Below, piece after piece: positions 4,737-5,516 of a stretch of 64,000 nucleotides of DNA; positions within the stretch are counted from its first letter, which is position 1; every line of letters starts with the position of its first letter. The position numbers and the translations under genes are program-made. The notes under the pieces were generated by a model that saw only the letters and a list, made by a program, of their open reading frames with translations, did not search any database and was not told where the DNA came from. The DNA lies in NCBI RefSeq assembly GCF_053078305.1, contig NZ_CP166879.1; one strand, written 5' to 3'.

Positions 4737-5516
4737 ATGCAAACCATCACCATCGCCCCACCCAAGCGCAGCTGGTTCTCGCTTCTGAGCTGGGCCGTTG
4801 TACTCGCCGTGCTGGTCGTCTCGTGGCAGGGCGCGGAAATGGCCCCGCTCACGCTGATTAAAGACGGCGGCAACATGGCGACTTTCGCCGCCGACTTCTT
4901 CCCGCCTGATTTCAGCCAGTGGCAGGATTACCTCACCGAAATGGCCGTCACGCTGCAAATCGCCGTCTGGGGCACCGCGCTGGCGGTGGTTCTCTCCATC
5001 CCCTTCGGCCTGATGAGCGCCGAAAACCTGGTGCCGTGGTGGGTTTACCAGCCCGTTCGCCGCCTGATGGACGCCTGCCGCGCCATTAACGAAATGGTCT
5101 TCGCCATGCTGTTCGTGGTCGCCGTCGGCCTCGGCCCGTTCGCTGGCGTGCTGGCGCTGTTTATCCACACCACCGGCGTGCTCTCCAAGCTGCTTTCCGA
5201 AGCGGTGGAAGCGATCGAACCCGGCCCGGTGGAAGGCATTCGCGCCACCGGAGCCAACAAACTCGAAGAGATCCTCTACGGCGTGCTGCCGCAGGTGATG
5301 CCGCTGCTGATCTCCTACTCCCTCTATCGCTTCGAATCCAACGTCCGCTCGGCGACCGTCGTCGGCATGGTCGGCGCGGGCGGAATTGGCGTCACGCTGT
5401 GGGAAGCGATTCGCGGTTTCCAGTTCCAGCAAACCTGCGCCCTGATGGTGCTGATTATCGTCACGGTCAGTCTGCTGGATTTCCTCTCTCAACGGTTGCG
5501 TAAGCACTTTATCTGA
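4737..5516 (+). CDS. phnE: Phosphonate ABC transporter permease PhnE (intact, 259 aa)
   Basis: ATG at 4737 ([12 protein letters not shown]); uninterrupted frame to 5516; hydrophobic permease with EAIE and GANK motifs. Confidence 0.9.

Follow-up and report, generated by a model that had tools for sequence, protein, structure and literature searches.

An in-frame phnE gene within a complete phn operon on a probably natural, non-K-12 Escherichia coli chromosome

The phn operon and its phnE gene

The window, i.e. the whole 64-kb stretch of DNA that was analysed, carries a phn gene cluster in which phnE directly follows the genes for its cognate ATPase (phnC) and binding protein (phnD), both of whose products score above their equivalog cut-offs. 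The features of this region, listed with family scores in bits, are the following.

2727..2763, plus strand: putative phnC promoter, with direct repeats resembling a pho box (CTGTTAG TCAC TTTTCAT ...) and, after them, the -10 hexamer AATAAT, identified by alignment
2802..3590, plus strand: phnC, importer ATPase subunit; full length, no stops; NF007438, 603.8 (cut-off 365)
3615..4631, plus strand: phnD, periplasmic phosphonate-binding protein; full length; TIGR03431, 375.6 (cut-off 261.1)
4737..5516, plus strand: phnE, intact 259-aa permease subunit of the PhnCDE phosphonate/phosphate ABC importer, assigned by ORF, translation and families
5142..5157, plus strand: two-unit 8-bp direct repeat GCTGGCGT GCTGGCGC within phnE, units at phnE positions 406 and 414, from alignment
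5537..6262, plus strand: phnF, GntR-type regulator; protein identical to that of K-12; NF007486, 518.6
6263..9198, plus strand: phnG, phnH, phnI and phnJ, C-P lyase core complex; full length; TIGR03293, TIGR03292 and Pfam PhnI/PhnJ
9195-9953, plus strand: phnK, C-P lyase system ATP-binding subunit; full length; TIGR02323, 411, above cut-off
10064-10744, plus strand: phnL, C-P lyase system ATP-binding subunit; full length; TIGR02324, 367.6, above cut-off
10741..13615, plus strand: phnM, phnN, phnO and phnP, accessory enzymes; full length, no stops; NF011981, NF007485, NF007530 and TIGR03307, above cut-off

The phnE reading frame extends from an ATG at 4737 to a TGA ending at 5516, and thus comprises 780 nt and 259 codons with no internal stop. 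An earlier note on this DNA had described an uninterrupted phnE frame of 259 codons, a description borne out by the ORF, by its translation and by an alignment free of frameshifts. Orthologues annotated in RefSeq begin at the ATG found here at 4737, which has a GGAG motif 8 nt upstream. A longer, GTG-started version of the gene (4674-5516, 280 aa) also appears in the mechanical ORF list. Its GTG is located inside the 105-nt spacer between phnD and phnE (4632-4736), which is built from REP-like palindromes of the GCCGGATGCGG and CCGCATCCGAC types.

The encoded protein matches the NCBIfam equivalog TIGR01097 with 311.5 bits (cut-off 216.7) over profile positions 8-251 of 252. An unbroken BPD_transp_1 domain (Pfam PF00528, 91.8 bits) occupies residues 88-258, and four strongly hydrophobic regions are evident in a crude hydropathy scan.

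All 14 genes of a complete C-P lyase operon, phnCDEFGHIJKLMNOP, are present in order and at full length. The 13 partners of phnE, from phnC (2802) to phnP (13615), have the lengths of their MG1655 counterparts, with proper start and stop codons and no internal stops, and each of the 14 products scores above a curated NCBIfam or Pfam cut-off. Neither PhnI nor PhnJ had an NCBIfam match at E <= 1e-10, and both were assigned through Pfam (513 and 501 bits, respectively). PhnJ retains all five positions checked, namely G32, C241, C244, C266 and C272. These are the glycine, the three cysteine cluster ligands (241/244/266) and the further cysteine which we take to be established for radical-SAM C-P cleavage.

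The region upstream of phnC is also well conserved, with only two positions in 140 nt differing from MG1655, B and O157. The sole difference within the promoter and pho-box region is an A-to-C change in the second pho-box-like half-site (TTTTAAT to TTTTCAT), and the -10-like hexamer AATAAT ends at 2763. We take these repeats to be a pho box on the strength of the established PhoB-dependent phnC promoter. The consensus of a pho-box half-site is CTGTCAT, and the A-to-C change brings the half-site nearer to this established sequence. The phoB and phoR genes needed for induction lie outside the stretch examined.

Comparison of the repeat tract with K-12

The window phnE was aligned with the allele of an O16:H48 K-12-type strain and with the closest allele found in complete genomes, and phnE of MG1655 (b4583) was extracted as well. 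In both K-12 sequences, phnE nucleotides 406-429 consist of three 8-bp units, GCTGGCGT GCTGGCGT GCTGGCGC, and the gene of the O16:H48 strain is annotated as frameshifted. The window tract at 5142-5157 is without the third unit that marks the K-12-type cryptic allele. This appears as an 8-nt gap at phnE nucleotides 406-413, which is the single indel relative to the K-12-like allele; against the intact E. coli allele, the three-way alignment contains no indel. In MG1655, the translation of phnE departs from the intact frame beyond residue 141 and meets its first stop codon some 50 codons later, so that roughly two-thirds of the BPD_transp_1 permease domain (88-258) is lost in the K-12 frame. Thus the 8-bp duplication shifting the K-12 frame, to which the earlier note had referred, was recovered in both K-12 sequences, and the place where the window lacks it was located, with no frameshift in the window.

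These observations agree with published work, in which the cryptic phenotype of K-12 is ascribed to an 8-bp insertion in phnE (PMC6469041). In a K-12 revertant, loss of GCTGGCGT at ORF positions 407-414 restored PhnCDE transport, and slippage readily yields such revertants by loss of a unit (PMC6469041). Iqbal et al. 2004, a paper cited in PMC6469041, names reversible phase variation at the phnE tract in K-12 in its title.

Frequency of the two alleles in E. coli

Among 5,426 complete E. coli genomes, phnE was found in 5,394. Allele counts were obtained with a 34-nt query that is seeded by the three-unit tract only. A 64-nt K-12 query was dropped because two-unit genomes answered it with two joined pieces of 100% identity. 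The 34-nt probe detected the three-unit tract in at least 1,011 of the 5,426 genomes, and about 81% of the 5,394 genomes were without it. A length of 788 nt instead of 780 nt was observed for 7 of the 39 full-length phnE matches in a sample spread evenly over the genomes. Functional phnE has been reported for the vast majority of strains (PMC6469041). Since some four-fifths of genomes have the two-unit form, the phnE allele of the window represents the norm of the species. Its intactness is correctly read but already known and ordinary, and it is nothing unusual.

The frameshift allele, for its part, is not confined to K-12. Carriers of the three-unit tract include K-12 laboratory strains together with numerous isolates of human, poultry, cattle, pet and seawater origin, and 31 of 59 carriers in a spread sample have chromosomes larger than 4.7 Mb. 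In six natural isolates with three units, phnE is annotated as frameshifted without exception, and all six share a single phnE haplotype that is one substitution away from MG1655. A single K-12-like haplotype in six isolates points to descent rather than to repeated switching. This small sample (n=6) suggests that the cryptic allele is a lineage marker inherited in nature, and neither a laboratory accident nor a state that is often re-created. That the three-unit 'cryptic' allele is no peculiarity of K-12 is a side result of modest value.

The two-unit tract at 5142-5157 might conceivably serve in this strain as a contingency locus, i.e. a reversible slippage switch by which phosphonate and phosphate uptake is turned off and on in natural populations. 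K-12 would then represent the 'off' state of a species-wide switch rather than a one-off oddity. We consider this idea improbable.

Predicted function of the phosphonate system

Our preferred reading, to which we assign a probability of roughly 0.88, is that phnE of the window is an ordinary two-unit allele, in frame ('on') and part of a complete operon on a natural non-K-12 E. coli chromosome. Under phosphate starvation, the phn operon would be transcribed from its conserved, putatively PhoB-type promoter, and PhnCDE would import alkyl- and aminoalkyl-phosphonates as well as orthophosphate. The products of phnGHIJKLM, phnN and phnP would then convert phosphonates into ribosyl-phosphonate intermediates, from which radical-SAM C-P cleavage by PhnJ would release usable phosphate. 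With the 13 partner genes intact, the family thresholds passed, and the PhnJ residues and the promoter sequence retained, a functional transporter and C-P lyase constitute, with high confidence, the best prediction that the sequence allows. The claim of the earlier note that the intact gene predicts a functional phosphonate system is thus reasonable as a prediction, given the intact operon and conserved promoter. Phosphonate/phosphate transport by this PhnE is also supported, indirectly, by its complete identity to the PhnE of E. coli B. We infer that the strain would express the operon, transport phosphonates and grow on them.

A challenge to this prediction is that phnE may be intact and the system as a whole non-working, owing to a damaging missense change in another Phn protein or to a regulatory defect outside the operon. 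Between them, PhnD, I, J, L, M, N and P carry 15 substitutions that none of the four comparison strains (K-12, B, O157 and Res13) has, among them E96K and H230Y in PhnJ, R141H in PhnL, P210S in PhnM and R177L in PhnP, and other lineages do inactivate the operon elsewhere, as with the frameshifted phnO of an O157:H7 strain. Nevertheless, all genes are full length with scores far above the equivalog cut-offs, and none of the 15 changes falls on the PhnJ residues checked, which are all kept. Moreover, exact matches in other public genomes, in the form of named E. coli proteins, exist for all ten Phn sequences queried (PhnC, D, E, H, I, J, L, M, N and P), as would be expected of tolerated polymorphisms. 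We therefore regard a non-working system as quite unlikely.

Two observations on variation within the operon may be added. The exact PhnL variant of the window occurs on only 2 contigs in the public-genome look-up. The O157:H7 strain 3-5-1 has an intact phnE and a phnO that carries the annotation 'frameshifted' (17685-18120 of the locus compared), from which it follows that the phn operon is disrupted at different genes across lineages.

On sequence grounds, phnE of this strain should probably be annotated as functional. Metabolic models based on K-12 would under-predict both its use of phosphonates and its phosphate uptake through PhnCDE. Beyond annotation, the intact gene matters little.

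Origin of the window

It might be argued that the strain truly has three units, and that the two-unit tract reflects an error of assembly or sequencing, or else a minority state. Miscounting of short tandem repeats is possible, and Iqbal et al. 2004, to judge from their title, described reversible phase variation of the tract in K-12. A tract of 16 or 24 bp is, however, trivial for any read technology. In MG1655 and in all six natural isolates sampled, the three-unit allele resides on one K-12-like haplotype, from which the window haplotype is 19-20 substitutions removed. The closest allele, that of Res13 with five differences, is also two-unit. This explanation is accordingly very improbable, and the ordinary two-unit allele remains the preferred reading.

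The earlier note had further taken the intact frame as evidence that the sequence is not from K-12. The conclusion stands, and the argument offered for it is the weakest of those available. The intact frame alone weighs little against K-12, because about 81% of E. coli genomes are without the three-unit tract, and it cannot by itself exclude K-12, since revertants arise by slippage (PMC6469041). Decisive evidence is provided by the wider sequence. With the indel set aside, 20 substitutions separate phnE from its MG1655 counterpart, identity to MG1655 between yjdM and phnP is 96.2%, and nothing in the 64-kb window matches K-12 rpiB, alsR or alsB. A K-12 derivative reverted to Phn+ through loss of one repeat unit, readily as such slippage revertants arise (PMC6469041), was rejected as next to impossible in view of the 20 phnE differences, the region identity of only 96.2%, and the missing rpiB-als genes with another gene cluster in their place. 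Shigella was likewise considered as a source, and the ten Phn proteins with exact matches are all named as E. coli proteins.

This other cluster lies after yjdP at about 13,966-26,000 of the window and includes genes for a sugar ABC transporter and a carbohydrate kinase, yjcS, and a hybrid sensor histidine kinase/response regulator gene on the minus strand (14050-16488). Matches over at least 80% of its length were obtained in only 410 of the 5,426 complete E. coli genomes.

At the other end of the phn region, the yjdM-yjdN intergenic segment (1675-2160) contains 4.8 tandem copies of a 100-bp unit formed from REP-like palindromes. MG1655 has a similar repeat array in the yjdM-yjdN region, seen as staggered matches.

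Sequence identity to other genomes varies along the window. In the phn region (1-14000), identity to complete E. coli genomes peaks at 97.2-97.3%, and in the acs-nrf-fdhF region (30000-50000) at 98.9%. On its own, phnE is 99.4% identical to that of one pig isolate. Such a mosaic is suggestive of recombination in the phn region.

Comparison with known phnE alleles

Three known alleles are of particular relevance. The K-12 gene, b4583 in MG1655 (pseudogene phnE1, cryptic phn(EcoK)), corresponds to that of the window in gene, locus and repeat unit sequence, and the flanking genes from yjdM to yjdP are alike. It differs in the third GCTGGCGT unit, in the frameshift after residue 141 and in the 20 substitutions mentioned above. 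PhnD of the window shows one substitution relative to K-12.

The closest allele in complete RefSeq genomes is that of Res13-Sevr-PER07-33, which has the two-unit tract and encodes an identical protein. At the nucleotide level it is 99.4% identical, with five synonymous phnE substitutions, and the remainder of its operon is less close to that of the window.

The third is that of E. coli B. Its derivative Rosetta2-DE3 encodes a PhnE (WP_001193500.1) that agrees with the window protein at all 259 residues (100% identity). As the proteins are identical, all 22 nucleotide differences between the two genes are synonymous. Several of the neighbouring Phn proteins of E. coli B are 1-11 residues apart from those of the window. 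We take E. coli B/BL21 to be the classical, naturally phosphonate-positive reference strain with the functional phn(EcoB) allele, whose phnE, like that of the window, has a two-unit tract and is part of a complete phnC-P operon.
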